DNA from: an uncultured virus (IMG/VR IMGVR_UViG_3300011202_000008)
Taxonomy: Duplodnaviria > Heunggongvirae > Uroviricota > Caudoviricetes
Length of the DNA: 20,000 nt
IMG/VR virus record: IMGVR_UViG_3300011202_000008
Reading direction: 5' to 3' (one strand)
Of this stretch, positions 6,759 through 20,000 are shown piece after piece; position 1 is the first letter of the stretch; the number at the start of each line of letters is the position of its first letter. The position numbers and the translations under genes were made by a program. The notes below the pieces were generated by a model. That model did not search any database, was not told where the DNA came from, and was given only the letters and a program-made list of their open reading frames with translations.

Positions 6759-8285
6759 ATGTATTTAAATTATAAAAAAGGTTTTAGTCTATTAGAATTG
6801 ATTTTAGTATTAGGTGTAGGGATCGCATTTGCTTTTATGAGATTTCAGGAAATGTTACAGCAACAAGACGAAATAAGAGCAAGCGTATCTGGAAAACAAA
6901 TAAAACAAATAGGTGATGCTACAAATGGTTATATTTCTTTAAGATATGATAAAATTTCATCATTATCTAATGCAGCAGGAAACGGTACCGATCCGGGGCC
7001 AAGAAACTGTTCTGGAAATATCTGTACTATAACATATCAAACTTTGGTTAATGAAGGTCTTCTTCCTTCAACATATGTTGCTAAGAATGGTTTTGGATCT
7101 GGATATAATATTCAAATTAGCCGTTCAGGTATCAGTCCTAACTATATCATAGATGGTGTAGTATTAACCAATGCTGCTTGGGTTGAAGGCGGTAAAGTTC
7201 GGTATGATCTGTTGGGTAAAGCTATGCAGTCAGCAGGGATTGACAGTGGGGTAAGTAAAAATACAACCACTGTAAATGGGTATGGTGGTGGATGGAGTTC
7301 GTCTTCTTCGACCTATTCTTTAATAAATAAAACTGGATTATTAGCTTATCGTACAGGATATAACTCTTTTGCTTATTCTGCTTATTTAAGACGTGATGGC
7401 ACACTCCCTATGACCGGAAATCTTGATATGGGGGCCAATGATATCAATAATGCTAAAAATATTACAGCTTCTGGTAACGCATCCTTTGGGGGAACTGGAA
7501 ACTTTATAGGAAATTTAATAACAATGGGGAGCGTTTTAGCAGCAAAAGAGCTAATAGCTCATAATGGTTATGGTGATGCTATTTATTTTGGTGGAGACAC
7601 GGCAAACAATGATTATGAAATACGTTTAGGAGCACCTAAACAACTTACTATATATTCACCATCAGCAGGAAATTATACTACCGTATTACAAGTTAATAGA
7701 AACGTCAAAATAGATCAAAGACTTGGATTAATGGGATACGATCCCAATGATATACCTATTGGATGGAATGGAGGCTTACGAACAGTTGATGTTTATGCTG
7801 AAGGAGCTATTGGAATAAAAAGAGCCAATGGTTCAGGAAATAGTGATTTAGCTTTTTCTGCTAACAATGATGGTAATGTTTTCTCATCTGGTAATATTAC
7901 TACAAATCAAAGAGTTATAGCTAATGATATTCAAATTAAAAAAATATACTCTGTCGGCTCACCATGCACTCCAAATGGTCTTATTGGCATTAGTAGTGAT
8001 GGTAACTCATTATCCTGTATTAACGGTTTATGGCAGAAAATATCTTTTAATTATTCTCAATATGAACTTACATACACTGCGCCTACAGAAGGAACTCAAG
8101 ATATTATTCAAACTAAAGTTATGGGCAAACATTTAGTTTGTTTTTTAACTGGAGATCAACATAATCCGGGGCTTCAAAAACACTCTTTAGTCTTTAGAAA
8201 TGGCGATGAGTGGATTTTAGAACAGAGAATGATAAAATGGCCTGCCCAAATCATAACATGGGCAAAAGCCACCTGCATTGACTAA
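6759..8285 (+). CDS. pilV: PilV-like type IVb pilus tip adhesin (shufflon N-terminal domain) with an unassigned C-terminal tip
   Basis: Prepilin motif KKG/FSLLEL, YLRRDGTLPMTGNLDM, and the C-x-PNG...LSCINGLW junction typical of PilV. Confidence 0.85.
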   Translation: MYLNYKKGFSLLELILVLGVGIAFAFMRFQEMLQQQDEIRASVSGKQIKQIGDATNGYISLRYDKISSLSNAAGNGTDPGPRNCSGNICTITYQTLVNEGLLPSTYVAKNGFGSGYNIQISRSGISPNYIIDGVVLTNAAWVEGGKVRYDLLGKAMQSAGIDSGVSKNTTTVNGYGGGWSSSSSTYSLINKTGLLAYRTGYNSFAYSAYLRRDGTLPMTGNLDMGANDINNAKNITASGNASFGGTGNFIGNLITMGSVLAAKELIAHNGYGDAIYFGGDTANNDYEIRLGAPKQLTIYSPSAGNYTTVLQVNRNVKIDQRLGLMGYDPNDIPIGWNGGLRTVDVYAEGAIGIKRANGSGNSDLAFSANNDGNVFSSGNITTNQRVIANDIQIKKIYSVGSPCTPNGLIGISSDGNSLSCINGLWQKISFNYSQYELTYTAPTEGTQDIIQTKVMGKHLVCFLTGDQHNPGLQKHSLVFRNGDEWILEQRMIKWPAQIITWAKATCID

Positions 8286-9472: not shown

Positions 9473-11269
9473 TTATAGCGCTCTTACAATATACATAAAA
9501 GCAGTGTTAGTTGGTCTTGCTCCACCATAGAAACCATTAGAACCATTATTAGATAAAGAAATACCATTACCTATCGCTTCATTTTTACCTGAAGATGGTC
9601 CAGTTCCAGATGACATGTGTACCCAATATTTAGGATCTTGACCATTACTTCCTGTGGTATAATCATATACGTTTATCGAATCTCTTGAATAAGCCGAACT
9701 TGGACCATGTAGAACACCAAAATCATTATCAGACCAGTTATCATCTGTTCCACCAACAACTGATGCTCTTTGCTCACTTAGTAATGTTCTTCCACCATCT
9801 TTACCTCTACCGTTATCCAAACCTCTTATAAACTGACCTCTTAAATCTGGAAGAACACCAGATGGATATGCTTTAGCAAGTAATGGATACTGTGATTTAT
9901 TGAAAGTTTGACCATTACATTCTAACCATCCTGTTGGTATCGTTGCAGAAGGCCAAGGTTGCGGTATACCTACAGGCATTTCAGGACTCCATATTCCACC
10001 CTTACAACTTAAAACTTGACCAGTACTATCTCTACCTAATAATCCTGCAGGAGAACAAGAGGCTCCAGCAGTTACAACGCTTCCTATTTCTAAATATTCA
10101 CCCGTTTTTATTCTTCCATCTACAGTCATATTGCCAGAAGCTTTAACATTACCATCCTGTCTCGCATAGAAACCAAATTTTCCTTCTGAAATCGTTGTTC
10201 CTGCTAATATAGAATAAAAAGAACCTGTTGCTACCACATCAACTGTTCTTACACCACCTGCACTGAATCCCGGAGGCATTTCATTAGGATCAAGCCCATT
10301 TGTTGCAAGTCTTTGTTGTATTTTTGTATTTTTATAAACATTTAATACTGTTGTATAATCTGCTGCATTAGGGGAATAAATACTTAATGGTTTCGTTCCA
10401 TTATATAGTCTTATTTCGTAATCATTACCATCACCTCCAGCAAAGGCTATAGAATCACCAGCACCGTTATGTGCTATAACTTCTCTCCCAGCATTAACAT
10501 AACCGCCAGATGTAACATCTCCTGTAAAAACACCTTTACCACCAAAAGTTGCTGTTCCAGACGCTGTAACATCTTTAGCATTATAAATATCCTGATTACC
10601 CATGTTTAAATTCCCTGTCATGGGTAAGGTTCCATCACGGCGTAAGTAGGCTGAATATAACGAGGCATTATATCCTACTCTAAAACCTAATACTCCTTGT
10701 TTATTTATTGCGGAAAAATCACTTTGTTGTAATGTCCATGCTCCACCAAACCCATTCATTTGAGAAGTTGTTTTAGTGGTTGCGCTATCAATTCCAGCCG
10801 ATTGCATAGCTTTACCTAAAAGATCATAACGAATGCTTCCACCCTCTATCCAAGCAGCATTGGTTAATACTACACCATCTATGATATAGTTAGGACTTGT
10901 TCCTGAACGCTTTAGTTGTATTGTGTAATCTGTCGATGAAAACGAGTTTTGAGGAACATATCCAGATGGTAATATTCCTTCATTGATTAATGTTTGATAT
11001 GTTATTGTACAGATACTTCCAGAACATGTTCTTGGACCCGGATCGGTACCGTTTCCGGCAGCATTAGATAAAGTTGATAGTTTATCATATCTTAATGATA
11101 TATAGTTATTAACAGCACTACCTATTCTTTGTATCTCTTGCCCTGCTATGTTGGCATTTATATTTTCTTGTTCATGCTTCATATCTTGAAATTTTATAAA
11201 TGCTACAGCAACGCCTATACCAAGCACTAATGTTAATTCAAGTAAGCTAAACCCCTTCTTTAATTTCAT
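9473..11269 (-). CDS. pilV: PilV-like adhesin fused to a phage tail-collar/tail-fibre C-terminal domain
   Basis: KKG/FSLLEL prepilin motif and shufflon N-domain. After LSCKGGIW comes PVGIPQPWPSATIPTGWLECNGQ...LPDLRGQFIRGLDNGRG...RPTNTAFMYIVRA, the tail-collar signature. Confidence 0.88.
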   Translation of the reverse strand: MKLKKGFSLLELTLVLGIGVAVAFIKFQDMKHEQENINANIAGQEIQRIGSAVNNYISLRYDKLSTLSNAAGNGTDPGPRTCSGSICTITYQTLINEGILPSGYVPQNSFSSTDYTIQLKRSGTSPNYIIDGVVLTNAAWIEGGSIRYDLLGKAMQSAGIDSATTKTTSQMNGFGGAWTLQQSDFSAINKQGVLGFRVGYNASLYSAYLRRDGTLPMTGNLNMGNQDIYNAKDVTASGTATFGGKGVFTGDVTSGGYVNAGREVIAHNGAGDSIAFAGGDGNDYEIRLYNGTKPLSIYSPNAADYTTVLNVYKNTKIQQRLATNGLDPNEMPPGFSAGGVRTVDVVATGSFYSILAGTTISEGKFGFYARQDGNVKASGNMTVDGRIKTGEYLEIGSVVTAGASCSPAGLLGRDSTGQVLSCKGGIWSPEMPVGIPQPWPSATIPTGWLECNGQTFNKSQYPLLAKAYPSGVLPDLRGQFIRGLDNGRGKDGGRTLLSEQRASVVGGTDDNWSDNDFGVLHGPSSAYSRDSINVYDYTTGSNGQDPKYWVHMSSGTGPSSGKNEAIGNGISLSNNGSNGFYGGARPTNTAFMYIVRAL

Positions 11270-15080: not shown

Positions 15081-15086
15081 TTATAA

Positions 15087-15138
15087 ATCTTGGACGACCA
15101 AGATATTCATTATTTATACAGGACGACCTGTAAAGGAG
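15087..15138 (+). ncRNA. Guanidine-II (mini-ykkC) riboswitch
   Basis: Two hairpins with ACGA loops, ATCTTGG-ACGA-CCAAGAT (15087-15104) and TACAGG-ACGA-CCTGTA (15117-15132), directly followed by the AAGGAG SD of an SMR gene. Confidence 0.93.
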
Positions 15139-15143
15139 ATTAT

Positions 15144-15464
15144 ATGAATATCTACTGGTTGTCTTTATTTTTTGCAGGTATACTTGAGATTATTTGGGCT
15201 TTCTTTATGAAGCAATCAGTAGGCTTCACAAAAATATTTCCATCTATTATCACAATTATTACCATGATTGGAAGCTTCTTCTTACTTTCTTTTTCCATGA
15301 AAAATATACCATTAAGTACGGCATATGTCATATGGACAGGCATTGGAGCTATTGGTTCTTTTCTTGTTGGAATATATTTATTAGGCGATTCGGTAAATAA
15401 TATAAAAATTATTGCTGCTATTTTTATTTTAATAGGTATTATTTTAATGAAAGCTTCTTCTTAA
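15144..15464 (+). CDS. sugE: SMR-family guanidinium exporter Gdx/SugE
   Basis: WLSLFFAGILEIIWAFFMKQSVGF and PLSTAYVIWTGIGAIG, four TM helices, guanidine-II riboswitch upstream; ATG at 15144. Confidence 0.9.
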   Translation: MNIYWLSLFFAGILEIIWAFFMKQSVGFTKIFPSIITIITMIGSFFLLSFSMKNIPLSTAYVIWTGIGAIGSFLVGIYLLGDSVNNIKIIAAIFILIGIILMKASS

Positions 15465-17361: not shown

Positions 17362-17390
17362 AAAAAAAGACACCCGGAGGTGTCTCTTTT
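17362..17390 (-). terminator. Intrinsic terminator closing the tRNA/ncRNA cluster
   Basis: Minus strand reads AGACACC-TCCG-GGTGTCT-TTTTTT. Confidence 0.85.
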
Positions 17391-17392
17391 AT

Positions 17393-17724
17393 AATGTTTT
17401 CCTAAAAAACATCCTATCCAGTTATCACTTTCGATCCGCCTTGCGCGAATACAGAATTATCTGCTGAAGGACGCTTTCTCAACTGGTTTATCGTCCTGAA
17501 ATTATTAGTAGGAGTGAGTTAGTAGCTTTAAACACTCTCTATATTTTGTTGATGGACCGCAATCACATCAACCAGACAAGTTTTAGGCGCTACTCTTGTC
17601 GGGGATTCAATGGGTTTATTTGCTATTACAACGCGCCTTCGGTTGTTCTTTTTTACTGTATTCCCTTTTTATACTCTAGAAATATAATCCAGTTTACTAC
17701 GCTACAGTGCATATAAACCACTTC
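17393..17724 (-). ncRNA. Candidate ~330-nt highly structured non-coding RNA, unassigned
   Basis: No ORF and higher GC than the flanks. Many stems plus complementary loops; lies between a tRNA CCA end and a terminator. Confidence 0.65.
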
Positions 17725-17801
17725 TGGTAGCGGGAGCAGGATTTGAACCTGCGGTCTCTAGGTTATGAGCCTAGTGAGATGCCATGCTTCTCCATCCCGC
17801 G
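17725..17801 (-). tRNA. tRNA-Met(CAT), initiator-like (C1:U72 mismatch)
   Basis: CGCGGGA...CTAGG-CTCATAA-CCTAG...GCAGG-TTCAAAT-CCTGC-TCCCGCT-A-CCA. Confidence 0.92.
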
Positions 17802-17877
17802 ATTATATGTTGAGATAATCGTATTTTCACCAACCTGTATTAACAGTAAATTCTACAGGTACTTCTACTTTCTCTCT

Positions 17878-17946
17878 TGGATGCTCCGGTAGGACTCGAA
17901 CCTACGATCTCCGGCTTGTGAAGCCAGTCATCTCCTCTAGGGAACA
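17878..17946 (-). pseudogene. Degenerate tRNA with anticodon CAC and a collapsed D-arm; paralog of 19082-19158
   Basis: CTGGC-TTCACAA-GCCGG AGATC GTAGG-TTCGAGT-CCTAC CGGAGCA-T-CCA. The 3' half is nearly identical to the 19082 tRNA. Confidence 0.7.
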
Positions 17947-18027
17947 ATTCATTCTTCAATTTCTTCTAATATAATAAAAAACATCATTTTATAATACATA
18001 GTCTTAACAAAATACTCTTGATTCTAC

Positions 18028-18363
18028 TTAGATAACTGTAACTTTCTTTCTTTCTTTAATTTCATCAAAGACTCTTTTTATAATTAGTATAATAATTGTT
18101 AGCAGATAAAAAATAGGGTAACCATTTAAAAGAAGCGAATCTATTTCTTTTGAGTATACAAAACCACGTATCGGAGCGTCAGAAAGAAACACATGAAGTA
18201 CCACATCAACACTGTCAGTGAAATAAACTTTTAAAAAAGGCATTGAGAGTAACGCATAAAAAATACCAAACAAAATAGCCCAATGTGAATCATTATTTTT
18301 TAAAAGTAAAATTATACTCATACTAATCATAATTGCCGCTGCTACTACATATACACCTACCAT
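18028..18363 (-). CDS. Small predicted membrane protein inside the tRNA cluster
   Basis: 111 aa, about three hydrophobic segments, GGAG SD. Confidence 0.65.
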   Translation of the reverse strand: MVGVYVVAAAIMISMSIILLLKNNDSHWAILFGIFYALLSMPFLKVYFTDSVDVVLHVFLSDAPIRGFVYSKEIDSLLLNGYPIFYLLTIIILIIKRVFDEIKERKKVTVI

Positions 18364-18385
18364 AATATATACTCCAAATTAATAT

Positions 18386-18574
18386 TGAGGCATTGACGCA
18401 TTACCTCTGTTACGCTACTAACTACGTTTGGGAAGCCCTTACGGTGTCGGTGGAGTAGCCCATTGAACCTACTTTTTCCACCCTATTTTTTTATCAACTT
18501 GCCTTACGGCGTCAGTGGAATGACTTGATAAATCATTTTAATCCACTCAGAAATATTCAGCTAAATATTTCAAC
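18386..18574 (-). ncRNA. Candidate structured RNA with two tandem pseudoknot modules and a terminal hairpin
   Basis: Repeats GTGG..stem..CCAC-YGAC-[GTAA hairpin] and covaries with the copy at 18707-18837. Confidence 0.7.
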
Positions 18575-18650
18575 TGGTTGCGAAGGCAGGAATTGAACCT
18601 GCGACCTCCAGATTATGAGCCTAGCGAGATAACCACTTCTCCACTTCGCG
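18575..18650 (-). tRNA. tRNA-Met(CAT), initiator-like (C1:A72 mismatch)
   Basis: CGCGAAG...CTAGG-CTCATAA-TCTGG...GCAGG-TTCAATT-CCTGC-CTTCGCA-A-CCA. Confidence 0.9.
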
Positions 18651-18705
18651 GGGTTGTTCTTGTAGGAATCGAACCTACTATTCTGTTGAATAACCAATAG
18701 AACAA
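18651..18705 (-). other. Miniature tRNA-like element (acceptor stem, short hairpin and T-arm)
   Basis: TGTTCT/AGAACA stem, TATTC-AACA-GAATA, GTAGG-TTCGATT-CCTAC, ending ACCC. Confidence 0.55.
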
Positions 18706-18706
18706 T

Positions 18707-18837
18707 TGGTGGAGCATTGACGCGCTACTCCATGCAGAGCCACCTGCTACGTTTGGGCTTTCTCTTACGAGGTCAGTGGCGTAGCCCCATGCGCATACTA
18801 CGTTTACCCACTCAGGATTACTTGGCATTAATCCGAC
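18707..18837 (-). ncRNA. Candidate structured RNA with one pseudoknot module and a CCA-terminated hairpin
   Basis: Homologous to 18386-18574; ends GGAGTA-loop-TGCTCC-A-CCA. Confidence 0.7.
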
Positions 18838-18894
18838 TTGTTTATTTATAGGAATCGAACCTATACTCTTACGAGGTTTACCACAACAATATAT
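18838..18894 (-). other. Degenerate or miniature tRNA-like element
   Basis: D-like GTTGTGGTAAAC, CTC-GTAA-GAG hairpin and T-arm ATAGG-TTCGATT-CCTAT; weak acceptor stem. Confidence 0.45.
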
Positions 18895-18904
18895 TCTTGT
18901 TAAG

Positions 18905-18927
18905 AAAAGCTACCCGGAAGTAGCTTT
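18905..18927 (-). terminator. Hairpin, possible terminator or processing signal
   Basis: Minus strand reads AAAGCTACT-TCCG-GGTAGCTTT-TCTT. Confidence 0.5.
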
Positions 18928-18973
18928 AAATTTGTTATAATACTTAGTTATGAATAAATCTAAGCTTTGTATT

Positions 18974-19081
18974 TGGTTTAAAGGTTTTGTTTTCACAAAA
19001 AATGGCTTACTGATTCATCAGAAGTGCTACCATTAAAGTCGGATATTTTCTTTTTCAAGCGAACTTGAACTTCCTTTAAAC
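18974..19081 (-). ncRNA. Candidate ~105-nt multibranch RNA immediately 3' of tRNA-Met
   Basis: GTTTAAAGG/CCTTTAAAC closing stem; TTCAAG-TTCG-CTTGAA, AATGG/CCATT and TTTGT-GAAA-ACAAA hairpins. Confidence 0.5.
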
Positions 19082-19158
19082 TGGTTGCTCCGGTAGGATT
19101 CGAACCTACGATCTCTGGCTTATGAGGCCAGCGAGGACAACCACTCCTCCACGGTGCT
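19082..19158 (-). tRNA. tRNA-Met(CAT) with A1:A72 and A4:A69 mismatches
   Basis: AGCACCG...CTGGC-CTCATAA-GCCAG...GTAGG-TTCGAAT-CCTAC-CGGAGCA-A-CCA. Confidence 0.85.
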
Positions 19159-19194
19159 ACTGAATAACTCATTGTGTTTGCTGAGTAGAAACGT

Positions 19195-19223
19195 ATAATA
19201 CGCTTTATTAAAATGCAAGTCAA
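19195..19223 (-). promoter_or_regulatory. Sigma70 promoter driving the tRNA/ncRNA cluster
   Basis: TTGACT-17 nt-TATTAT with an AT-rich UP-like tract upstream. Confidence 0.7.
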
Positions 19224-19255
19224 ATACTTTTTTATATATTTTTATTCATTTTTTG

Positions 19256-19328
19256 CCACCTTAGCTGGACTCGAACCAGCAACCTTTTCTTTCGGAAAGA
19301 ACTGCTCTATCCATTGAGCTATAAGATG
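19256..19328 (-). tRNA. tRNA-Arg(CCG); CCA not encoded (CAA follows)
   Basis: CATCTTA/TAAGGTG acceptor, GCTC-AATGGATA-GAGC D-arm with A20, loop TTCCGAA, GCTGG-TTCGAGT-CCAGC. Confidence 0.88.
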
Positions 19329-19400
19329 AGATTTTTAATTGAATATTTCCATTAATATATATTAAACTATCTCATAATACAACTAAAAAAGGTTCATAGA

Positions 19401-20000
19401 ATGAATGCAGAGAATATCATAAATCAAATATCAAAAGAAAAAGAAAGTTTCCTTGATCAATTCAATGAAAAAAAACGATTTGATAAAGAAACAAGAGATT
19501 ACTTTGATTTTTTAAGTTCAGATGATGGAGCAGCAGCTTTTGTTTTATGTTTTATGAGTTCTATGGTTATTTCAGCCATATCTGGCATCACTTTAGCTCA
19601 TCTTTTTCCAGCAATAAAGGATATTCTTGATGGTTTCTTTATTTTCCCTTTATCTATATGTTTTGGTGTGCTTATTGTTTTTACTGTTAATAAAAGTATT
19701 TCTAGACTTATTTTCAATAGACTTTATAATAACAGAGATAAAAATAATATTATAAGTAAACTTTTTAAATCTTATTTTTACAAAGCAAATATCTCTGATG
19801 AAATTCATAACATGCTAAAAGTTTATCTTTCAGATGATGATTATGTTCATTTGGTTAAAAAAGGAATTACCTATAAAAACGCATATAGTATTCTCAATGA
19901 AATTGTTGAAAACGAAAAGATTATAGCCAATAAAAGAGAAGTCTTTTTAACACCAGAAGAAATTAAAAAATACCAATATTCAAATAATAAGGATTCATAA
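19401..20000 (+). CDS. Hypothetical membrane protein with two TM segments
   Basis: 199-aa ORF with AAGG SD, ending TAA at the window edge. Confidence 0.7.
   Translation: MNAENIINQISKEKESFLDQFNEKKRFDKETRDYFDFLSSDDGAAAFVLCFMSSMVISAISGITLAHLFPAIKDILDGFFIFPLSICFGVLIVFTVNKSISRLIFNRLYNNRDKNNIISKLFKSYFYKANISDEIHNMLKVYLSDDDYVHLVKKGITYKNAYSILNEIVENEKIIANKREVFLTPEEIKKYQYSNNKDS

Follow-up and report, generated by a model that had tools for sequence, protein, structure and literature searches.

A modular pseudoknotted RNA family in a phage tRNA operon

The tRNA array of an uncultured virus of the Caudoviricetes (IMG/VR record IMGVR_UViG_3300011202_000008) raises the question of what is encoded between its tRNAs, where two non-coding stretches, termed here unit A and unit B, are built from copies of one module and share a common tail. 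We analysed a 20-kb window of this DNA, by which we mean the whole stretch of 20,000 nt, and compared it with three metagenome relatives, L040, L048 and L108. The units represent a modular pseudoknotted RNA family in a phage tRNA operon that is real and uncatalogued. The module folds into a pseudoknot, the fold is conserved by compensatory changes, the units lie flush with tRNAs and no known family matches them. A prediction made earlier from the sequence alone, called here the original prediction, had proposed such a module together with several identities for it; its overall reading is partly supported.

Fold and covariation of the module

The module is about 60 nt long and occurs three times on the minus strand of the window (M1, M2 and M3; Table 1). 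The pattern GTGGN{15,35}CCACYGACNNCGTAAG matches the window at exactly three places, 18811-18764, 18546-18503 and 18481-18438, and none of 200 dinucleotide shuffles of the window contained any match. Each module begins with R-GUGG, a bulge of 4-5 nt ending in AA, a 5-bp stem (S1), a loop carrying the 5′ strand of the pseudoknot, the returning strand S1′ and CCAC-Y, and it continues with GAC, a small hairpin (P4), a linker of 2-4 nt and the 3′ strand of the pseudoknot. Because S1′ abuts CCAC, the outer helix P1 and S1 form one helix broken by an A-rich bulge. The S1 loop pairs with the 3′ tail of the module, producing an H-type pseudoknot whose connecting strand contains the invariant GAC and P4. 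A GNRA loop (GUAA, GCAA or GAAA) caps P4 in nine of the ten distinct modules, M3 of L108 having a longer hairpin instead.

In M1, P1 pairs AGTGG (18812-18808) with CCACT (18779-18775), S1 pairs CGTAG (18802-18798) with CTACG (18784-18780), the pseudoknot joins TGGG (18789-18786) to CCCA (18757-18754), P4 is CTC-GTAA-GAG (18771-18762) and the bulge reads GTAAA. M2 has P1 at 18547-18543 and 18518-18514, S1 AATGA/TCATT, P4 GCC-GTAA-GGC and an 8-bp pseudoknot between TTTATCAA (18532-18525) and TTGATAAA (18497-18490). M3 consists of P1 GGTGG (18482-18478) with CCACC (18453-18449), S1 AGTAG/CTACT, pseudoknot TGGG/CCCA (CCCA at 18432-18429) and P4 (A)CC-GTAA-GG(G). All three copies, with the S1, pseudoknot and P4 elements listed in the original prediction, were found in place. 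One further covarying pair of P1, which that prediction had missed, is A-U in seven and G-C in three of the ten distinct modules.

The modules diverge in sequence, with a mean column identity of 59%. A covariance model (CM) of their nested helices, R1, detected 11 modules across the window and its three relatives, each at E ≤ 1.4e-8; the rest of the 20-kb window contained no match better than E 0.76. When the ten distinct modules were aligned, 96.9% of the 130 cells of the nested helices were paired and 8 of the 13 pairs were changed on both sides, a result equalled by none of 500 shuffles; covariation was seen in all five pairs of S1, in two of the three of P4 and in the outer one of P1. Pairing fell to 27-49% when the partners were slid against each other. 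A second alignment of seven unit rows, in which the pseudoknots were included, gave 98.0% of 246 cells paired, with both sides changed in 16 of 45 pairs and again no equal among 500 shuffles. Both-side changes in this set affect three of the five core pairs of the M2 pseudoknot (four loci), as well as three of four pairs in hairpin 1, three of six in hairpin 2 and two of eight in P0, the hairpins described below. The M2 pseudoknot reads AUCAA/UUGAU, CUCAA/UUGAG or UUUGA/UCAAA, depending on the locus, and the M3 pseudoknot opens with a U-G pair in L108, where the window, L040 and L048 have U-A.

Secondary-structure prediction was also performed on the units. RNAalifold, blind to the model, recovered P0, the P1, S1 and P4 of M2, most of P1 and S1 of M3, and hairpin 2. 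RNAfold alone reproduced the model of unit B (z −2.50, with 1 of 200 shuffles as good). The pair counts from the module and unit alignments bear out the earlier description of a modular, pseudoknotted and covarying non-coding RNA in two units.

Composition, placement and relatives of the units

Each unit opens with a hairpin, P0, which is GGATTA/TAATCC in unit A (18834-18815) and GAAATATT/AATATTTC in unit B (18571-18550), followed in both by TGAGTGG. The common tail comprises AACGUAG, a hairpin with a GURGC loop (hairpin 1) and a second hairpin (hairpin 2) that contains an invariant U-G pair and is capped by a ..CGUCAA loop. In unit A, AACGTAG (18753-18747) leads into hairpin 1, GCAG/CTGC (18747-18734), and hairpin 2, GGAGTA/TGCTCC with the loop GCGCGTCAA (18731-18711), and the unit finishes with ACCA (18710-18707). 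The corresponding parts of unit B are AACGTAG (18428-18422), GTTA/TAAC (18422-18409) and GAGGTA/TGCCTC with the loop ATGCGTCAA (18407-18387). P0, hairpin 1 and hairpin 2 covary between the two units. The opening hairpins, the two GTRGC-loop hairpins, the closing hairpins with ..GCGTCAA loops and the ACCA had all been recognized in the original prediction, and all are present. It had also paired the GCGTCA loop with the TGAC(GC) element. The complementarity holds, in that GUC(A) of the terminal loop matches (U)GAC, but GUC and GAC are both invariant and the contact is therefore beyond the reach of covariation. An alternative in which the tail CGUAG pairs with the 3′ strand of S1 was rejected: where A-U replaces C-G as the outermost pair of S1, it is the 5′ strand of S1 that compensates, and the tail keeps its C. 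Aligned to unit B with MAFFT, unit A appears as if the segment from mid-M2 to mid-M3 had been deleted. A coding role of the units was rejected: the open reading frames (ORFs) across them overlap tRNAs, and none is common to both lineages.

Table 1. Positions of the units, their modules and other features of the window
Feature	Coordinates (strand)	Description
Unit A, 128 nt	18707..18834 (-)	P0, M1, AACGTAG, two-hairpin tail, ACCA
Module M1	18754..18812 (-)	CM R1 70.1 bits, E 9e-20
Unit B, 185 nt	18387..18571 (-)	P0, M2, A-rich linker, M3, tail of unit A type
Module M2	18490..18547 (-)	CM R1 76.9 bits
Module M3	18429..18482 (-)	CM R1 57.5 bits
tRNA-Met (CAU)	18575..18650 (-)	Unpaired C1/A72; directly upstream of unit B in four of four loci
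Armless tRNA-like element 2	18654..18705 (-)	7-bp acceptor-like stem TTGTTCT/AGAACAA, T-arm GTAGG-TTCGATT-CCTAC, without D-arm
Degenerate tRNA-like element 1	18839..18910 (-)	Precedes unit A; T-arm ATAGG-TTCGATT-CCTAT at 18864-18848
Promoter-like site TTGACT-17-TATTAT	19195..19223 (-)	Upstream of tRNA/non-coding RNA array; consensus match only
Two paralogous fibre genes	6759-8285 (+), 9473-11269 (-)	Type-IV-pilin-like/shufflon N-terminal region joined to phage tail-collar domain

The units lie on the same strand as the five tRNAs that ARAGORN calls in the window. In minus-strand order, the array reads promoter-like site, tRNA-Met (19158-19082), a spacer of about 170 nt, tRNA-like element 1, unit A, tRNA-like element 2, tRNA-Met (18650-18575) and unit B, and the G+C content rises to 0.39-0.49 across the units, compared with 0.19-0.25 in the flanking genes. 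Unit B begins 3 nt past the CCA of this tRNA-Met, a spacing that is held behind a C1/A72 tRNA-Met in all four loci; P1 of M2 begins 28 nt past the CCA (18575 to 18547), with P0 in between. Attachment to the 3′ ends of tRNAs or tRNA-like elements, as originally described, thus applies to both units, unit B lying behind tRNA-Met and unit A behind the degenerate element. The 3′ neighbour of unit B differs by lineage, being an ORF (18363-18028) in the window, a tRNA-Met in L040 and L048, and a terminator in L108. In the window, 23 nt separate the end of unit B from the start codon of this ORF.

A pattern scan of metagenome contigs returned 73 loci, three of which are the true homologues L040, L048 and L108. 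L040 and L048 have the same layout as the window at 90-95% identity, and their copies of unit A differ from that of the window at one and three positions, respectively. L108 has a G+C content of 31% and is 76% identical to the window across 244 nt. Homologues of unit B are present in all three. In L108 the operon consists of a promoter-like site (271-299), in which the promoter-like hexamers of the window recur, tRNA-Met (315-391), a C1/A72 tRNA-Met (397-472) and unit B (473-692), and it is followed by a rho-independent terminator (693-716) and a convergent ORF. A recurrent intergenic sequence accounts for the module pattern in 19 of the 73 loci (L044, L046, L049, L061 and others). It has a hairpin CGCC-GAAG-GCG followed by GTGG..CCACCGAC-CTC-GTAA-GAG, with no nearby tRNA and no Rfam match; L044, the one locus scored, reached 19 bits against R1, and these loci were not counted as family members. 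A search for related loci by way of the ADP-ribosylglycohydrolase gene found none.

The window was also compared with known RNA families. Rfam 15 at gathering thresholds reported only tRNAs and, elsewhere in the window, a guanidine-II riboswitch. At E ≤ 10, positions 17600-19500 gave 15 matches on the two strands, none of them on the modules and none to a ribozyme, a riboswitch, GOLLD, ROOL, wcaG or manA; at E ≤ 1, L040 and L108 were likewise free of matches to any of these. The hammerhead, twister, twister-sister, pistol, hatchet and hairpin ribozymes found no match at any of these three settings, and no family of the hepatitis delta virus (HDV) type was among the matches at E ≤ 10 in 17600-19500. 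Rfam may lack a dedicated model for theta ribozymes. A tRNA or transfer-messenger RNA (tmRNA) identity was rejected for the modules, as ARAGORN and Rfam call the flanking tRNAs only. The earlier statement that the module belongs to no catalogued family therefore withstood the Rfam scan even at E ≤ 10. No description of the module was found in the literature on T4 rnaC/rnaD, theta ribozymes, pseudoknot RNAs of tRNA clusters and manA, which is not proof of absence. A catalogue of about 10,000 candidate viral RNAs derived from IMG/VR, as presented in PMC10690425, could in principle contain it.

tRNA-like element 1, in front of unit A, receives no call at default settings, and ARAGORN with -ps80 returns a 72-nt tRNA-?. 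It contains a CTC-GTAA-GAG hairpin identical to P4 of M1, with the loop GTAA replaced by GAAA in L040 and L048; this shared hairpin, together with the apparent deletion in unit A, suggests that the array has seen recombination among modules and tRNA fragments. Only CCC separates tRNA-like element 2 from tRNA-Met. The element was not called by ARAGORN, mitochondrial mode included, and matched no Rfam tRNA model; it matched only a 17-nt fragment of beta_tmRNA, at the T-arm (18662-18678, E 1.5), and, weakly and in antisense, Plastid-ycf2 (18653-18704, E 0.039). An RNase P cut at tRNA-Met would leave ..CC on this element, which a CCA-adding enzyme could complete.

Three CAU tRNA genes of the window (17725-17801, 18575-18650 and 19082-19158, minus strand) have position 1:72 unpaired, an initiator-like trait, and none of them has three G-C pairs in the anticodon stem; L040 and L048 have four CAU tRNAs each. 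A 457-bp stretch, 17928-18384 (-), which holds ORF 18363-18028 (111 amino acids; no Pfam or PHROG match), is missing from L040 and L048, where a full tRNA-Met is found instead. The last 50 nt of a weak ‘tRNA-Val’ at 17878-17946 (-; 30.7 bits) are common to this tRNA-Met, and the ‘tRNA-Val’ is probably a tRNA truncated by the 457-bp insertion. Between the last tRNA-Met and a strong hairpin-plus-T-run lies a non-coding stretch of about 360 nt (17362-17724 (-)), with a raised G+C content of 0.34-0.41 and 95% conservation in L040 and L048. One of its hairpins, GACAAG/CTTGTC, carries in its loop AGTAGCG, a word common to the unit tails and T4 rnaC, and the stretch may contain further small RNAs. 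The spacer at 18911-19081 (-) has the hairpins TTCAAG-TTCG-CTTGAA and, with differing loops, CTTAG../..CTAAG, both kept in L040 and L048, and may be a structured RNA too.

Judged by its gene content, the window (30% G+C) looks like part of a large phage. It encodes a T4-type RNA ligase 1 (PF09511; phrog_562/T4 Rnl1, by Pfam and PHROG), for which the best protein match is from the Ralstonia jumbo phage RsoM2USA (37.6% identity), two tail-collar fibre proteins (phrog_523) with shufflon-like N termini, an NAD kinase, two Nudix hydrolases, MYG1, an R2K ATP-grasp protein, an ADP-ribosylglycohydrolase and a metallophosphoesterase. Searches with blastn and megablast found no DNA-level resemblance to the window among GenBank phages or PLSDB plasmids, matching either nothing or tRNAs alone. 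The guanidine-II (mini-ykkC) riboswitch match (15086-15130 (+); 35.2 bits, against a gathering score of 32) stands directly in front of a gene for an SMR-family transporter (15090-15464 (+)), with phage-like DNA around it.

Proposed processing, possible roles and alternatives

We lean towards the view that units A and B are paralogues, belonging to a family of small structured RNAs that has not been catalogued and is encoded within a phage tRNA operon. The units directly adjoin a tRNA or tRNA-like element at either end, or else a terminator, and most simply they would be transcribed as part of the tRNA precursor and then trimmed free. The order in L108 (promoter, tRNA, tRNA, unit B, terminator) would place unit B on such a transcript. 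Excision would probably fall to the enzymes responsible for maturation of the neighbouring tRNAs or tRNA-like elements, with RNase P cutting at the 5′ end of the next tRNA or tRNA-like element and 3′-end processing of the preceding tRNA acting on the other side. Once freed, the units would persist as compact, stable RNAs. Tertiary contacts or a partner-binding surface are suggested by the invariance of the GUGG/CCAC helix, AACGUAG, GAC, the AA of the bulge, the GNRA loop and the CGUCAA loop together with its U-G pair. The invariant single-stranded and loop residues would serve one or the other purpose; as candidate contacts, the GNRA loop could touch the CC:GG step of P1, and GUC in the terminal loop could meet GAC.

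What the freed RNAs would do is a matter of speculation. By analogy, their most likely action, which we offer tentatively, would be in trans as multivalent binding RNAs, a scaffold or a decoy for a host or phage protein. A module number that varies between one and two is easier to reconcile with a multivalent binder than with a catalytic core, and on this ground a scaffold or decoy is favoured with low confidence. Such a binder would be the same general kind of molecule as RNAs C and D of phage T4. We consider it unlikely that the module is an undescribed functional fold that large phages attach to an initiator-like tRNA-Met, be it as a new catalytic tRNA-processing RNA or as a multivalent decoy. 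If this decoy version is true, the units would trap a host tRNA-targeting nuclease or a tRNA-maturation enzyme and thereby protect the phage tRNA supply during infection.

Several observations weigh against this account. The family comprises four loci from two lineages, plus paralogues. Scans of IMG/VR with module plus GTAA (18 loci), the strict tail (17), module plus tail (2), the relaxed tail (3) and module plus GNRA (37) revealed no family member on inspection or by CM, the best CM score on these pattern-preselected loci being 17.3 bits. At least 120 loci matched in genome contigs, and among the 10 listed with five S1 pairs or a G+C content below 0.42 none was real. The minimum free energy (MFE) fold of unit A differs from the model (z +0.20, with 113 of 200 shuffles as good), RNAfold reproducing unit B only; it is covariation, not energy, that supports the fold. 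The alignment, A4, was fitted to the model and leans towards structure, and the shuffle control makes the significance look too high, since rows that share ancestry can outscore shuffles even when no structure exists. Four of the five P1 pairs, S1 of M1 and of M3 and the GGG/CCC of the M1 and M3 pseudoknots are invariant and so carry no covariation information. RNAalifold also found a competing hairpin, CGU..GGG/CCC..ACG, across P4 and the pseudoknot of M3 in window-type sequences; it was rejected, being broken in L108 and, read from the sequence, unable to form in unit A. Finally, the trans-acting role is argued from analogy, and the expression and ends of the units are predicted from sequence.

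The constant position of unit B, 3 nt past the CCA of the same tRNA-Met in all four loci, might instead reflect a cis-acting element of the tRNA trailer, formed by the modules alone or together with P0 and acting either as a new self-cleaving ribozyme or as a nuclease-directing structure, that makes the 3′ end of tRNA-Met in the manner of theta ribozymes. The compact build of the module, in which several helices form a pseudoknot and a few unpaired residues (AA and GAC) never vary, would suit such a task. HDV-like and theta ribozymes, however, are nested double pseudoknots with the order P1-P2-P3-L3-P3′-P1′-P4-J4/2-P2′. In a hand threading of the module onto this topology, the 5′ strand of the long-range helix fell within the S1 loop instead of lying between P1 and the inner hairpin, in disagreement with the order P1-P2-P3-P1-P4-P2, and the bulge (GTAAA, ATTAA or AAAA) had no complement at the 3′ end of the module. 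A theta ribozyme would be expected to cleave within ±5 nt of the tRNA end, going by the Fig. 4 legend of PMC10879173; the 28 nt between the CCA and the first module, with the covarying P0 among them, led us to reject theta-type spacing. Moreover, unit A is preceded only by a degenerate tRNA-like element, the number of modules varies between one and two, a trailer ribozyme would not need the conserved 60-nt tail, and no self-cleaving family of Rfam matched even at E ≤ 10. We therefore judge a trailer element to be quite unlikely; membership in a known self-cleaving class is not supported either, given the lack of an Rfam match, the topology and the spacing. A riboswitch or other cis-regulatory leader, with tandem similar pseudoknotted modules as tandem aptamers and ORF 18363-18028 close behind unit B, is highly improbable and already largely refuted by context. 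This ORF belongs to the 457-bp insert that is absent from L040 and L048, where tRNA-Met follows unit B, so unit B is not its leader; in L108 a terminator and a convergent gene come after unit B, and a tRNA-like element comes after unit A. No expression platform overlaps the tail, no riboswitch model of any class, preQ1-II, wcaG and manA included, matches, and there is no consistent position in a 5′ untranslated region across lineages.

The surroundings of the units could also suggest functionless debris of tRNA-gene duplication and recombination, that is, fragments of tRNA pseudogenes. The array contains degenerate tRNA-like pieces (18910-18839 and 18705-18654) and a truncated tRNA (17878-17946), M3 has in S1 a hairpin (AGTAG-GTTCAAT..) that resembles a T-arm, tRNA-like element 1 and M1 have the CTC-GTAA-GAG hairpin in common, and unit A looks like unit B with mid-M2 to mid-M3 removed. 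Debris would not be expected to keep nine helices, a pseudoknot included, by compensatory changes between paralogues and lineages; the T-loop likeness is missing from M1, from M2 and from the M3 of L108, and no tRNA model matches the modules, making this origin very improbable. GOLLD and ROOL occur in phages near tRNAs, each as one continuous RNA of several hundred nucleotides, and the original prediction had considered the modules as domains of a large ornate RNA of this type. The further G+C-rich non-coding stretches beside the tRNAs (17724-17362 and 19081-18911) would agree with an RNA spanning the region. Neither GOLLD nor ROOL matched even at E ≤ 10, canonical tRNAs with their own CCA interrupt the region, and the units measure 128 and 185 nt and have tRNAs as their borders; in L108, unit B stands by itself, with a tRNA on one side and a terminator on the other. 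The L108 layout already contradicts a large RNA, which we give almost no chance.

If units A and B are members of a small RNA family, as we favour, that family is modular, variable in copy number and fixed in position behind a C1/A72 tRNA-Met. Annotation pipelines miss it because Rfam lacks it. At 130-220 nt, its members offer a compact, readily synthesised object for testing the possible roles of companion RNAs as processing signal, decoy, scaffold or catalyst.

Comparison with known phage and pseudoknotted RNAs

The preQ1-II riboswitch is an H-type pseudoknot with a hairpin embedded in its last loop. The module is alike in that a hairpin loop pairs with the 3′ tail and a small hairpin sits in the connecting strand, and it differs in its extra outer P1 and A-rich bulge, the absence of an Rfam match and the absence of a gene-control context. 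Type III antitoxin RNAs, which occur as arrays of short, almost identical repeats next to the gene for an endoribonuclease toxin, provide a second likeness, and phage pseudo-ToxI mimics of these RNAs exist. ToxI and CptI are, like the units, tandem pseudoknotted RNAs with A-rich linkers in between, and ToxI is described as an antitoxic RNA pseudoknot (PMC5772629). The modules of the window, by contrast, are not near-identical repeats and number only one or two per unit, and Pfam detects no toxin gene in the window; given 59% module identity and no ToxN/AbiQ-type domain among the 20 window proteins, a type III antitoxin RNA was rejected. The wcaG (RF01761) and manA (RF01745) motifs of T4-like cyanophages are, as presented in PMC2864571, structured RNAs of unknown role carried by phages. 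The units share that setting, whereas neither motif matched in the Rfam searches at E ≤ 10 (17600-19500) or E ≤ 1 (L040 and L108).

Theta ribozymes come closer in placement. They are small pseudoknotted RNAs directly downstream of phage tRNAs that are proposed to act on the tRNA 3′ trailer, and tRNA-Met is one of three tRNA types that jointly account for more than 70% of their matches, as reported in PMC10879173. A pseudoknotted RNA behind phage tRNAs, tRNA-Met included, is thus common to both. The units differ from them in helix order, in the P0 between tRNA and module, in having one or two modules and in their conserved tail.

RNA C and RNA D of T4 (rnaC/rnaD, the species 1 and 2 RNAs) are small structured RNAs whose function was still given as unknown in 2010 and 2025 (PMC3014915, PMC12685909). 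Like the units, they are a pair of small RNAs encoded within the tRNA cluster of a phage, where they lie side by side; the resemblance is one of kind and does not make the units members of their family. The rnaC homologue of Enterobacter phage Entb_45 abuts tRNA-Met. R1 found no match on T4 rnaC/rnaD (L019 1909-2172), and nhmmer searches with a unit profile against T4-like loci and with an rnaC profile against the window and its relatives gave a best E of 6.4, which is insignificant. Homology was therefore rejected: the words GAGTAGCG, CCGTAAG and CGTCAA are common to both, without CM or profile support. In its MFE fold, T4 rnaC (L019 1909-2047 (-)) is cloverleaf-like with a T-arm and, unlike the units, has no pseudoknot modules. 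This fold places UGAC in a tetraloop and CGUCAA, complementary to it, in a hexaloop; both loops are invariant in all four aligned homologues (L270-L272 included) and may form a loop-loop contact. The two loops recall the YGAC element and the ..CGUCAA terminal loop of the units, as a lead only. To the long-known, unexplained small stable RNAs of phage tRNA clusters, the units add an unrelated family with a fold backed by covariation.

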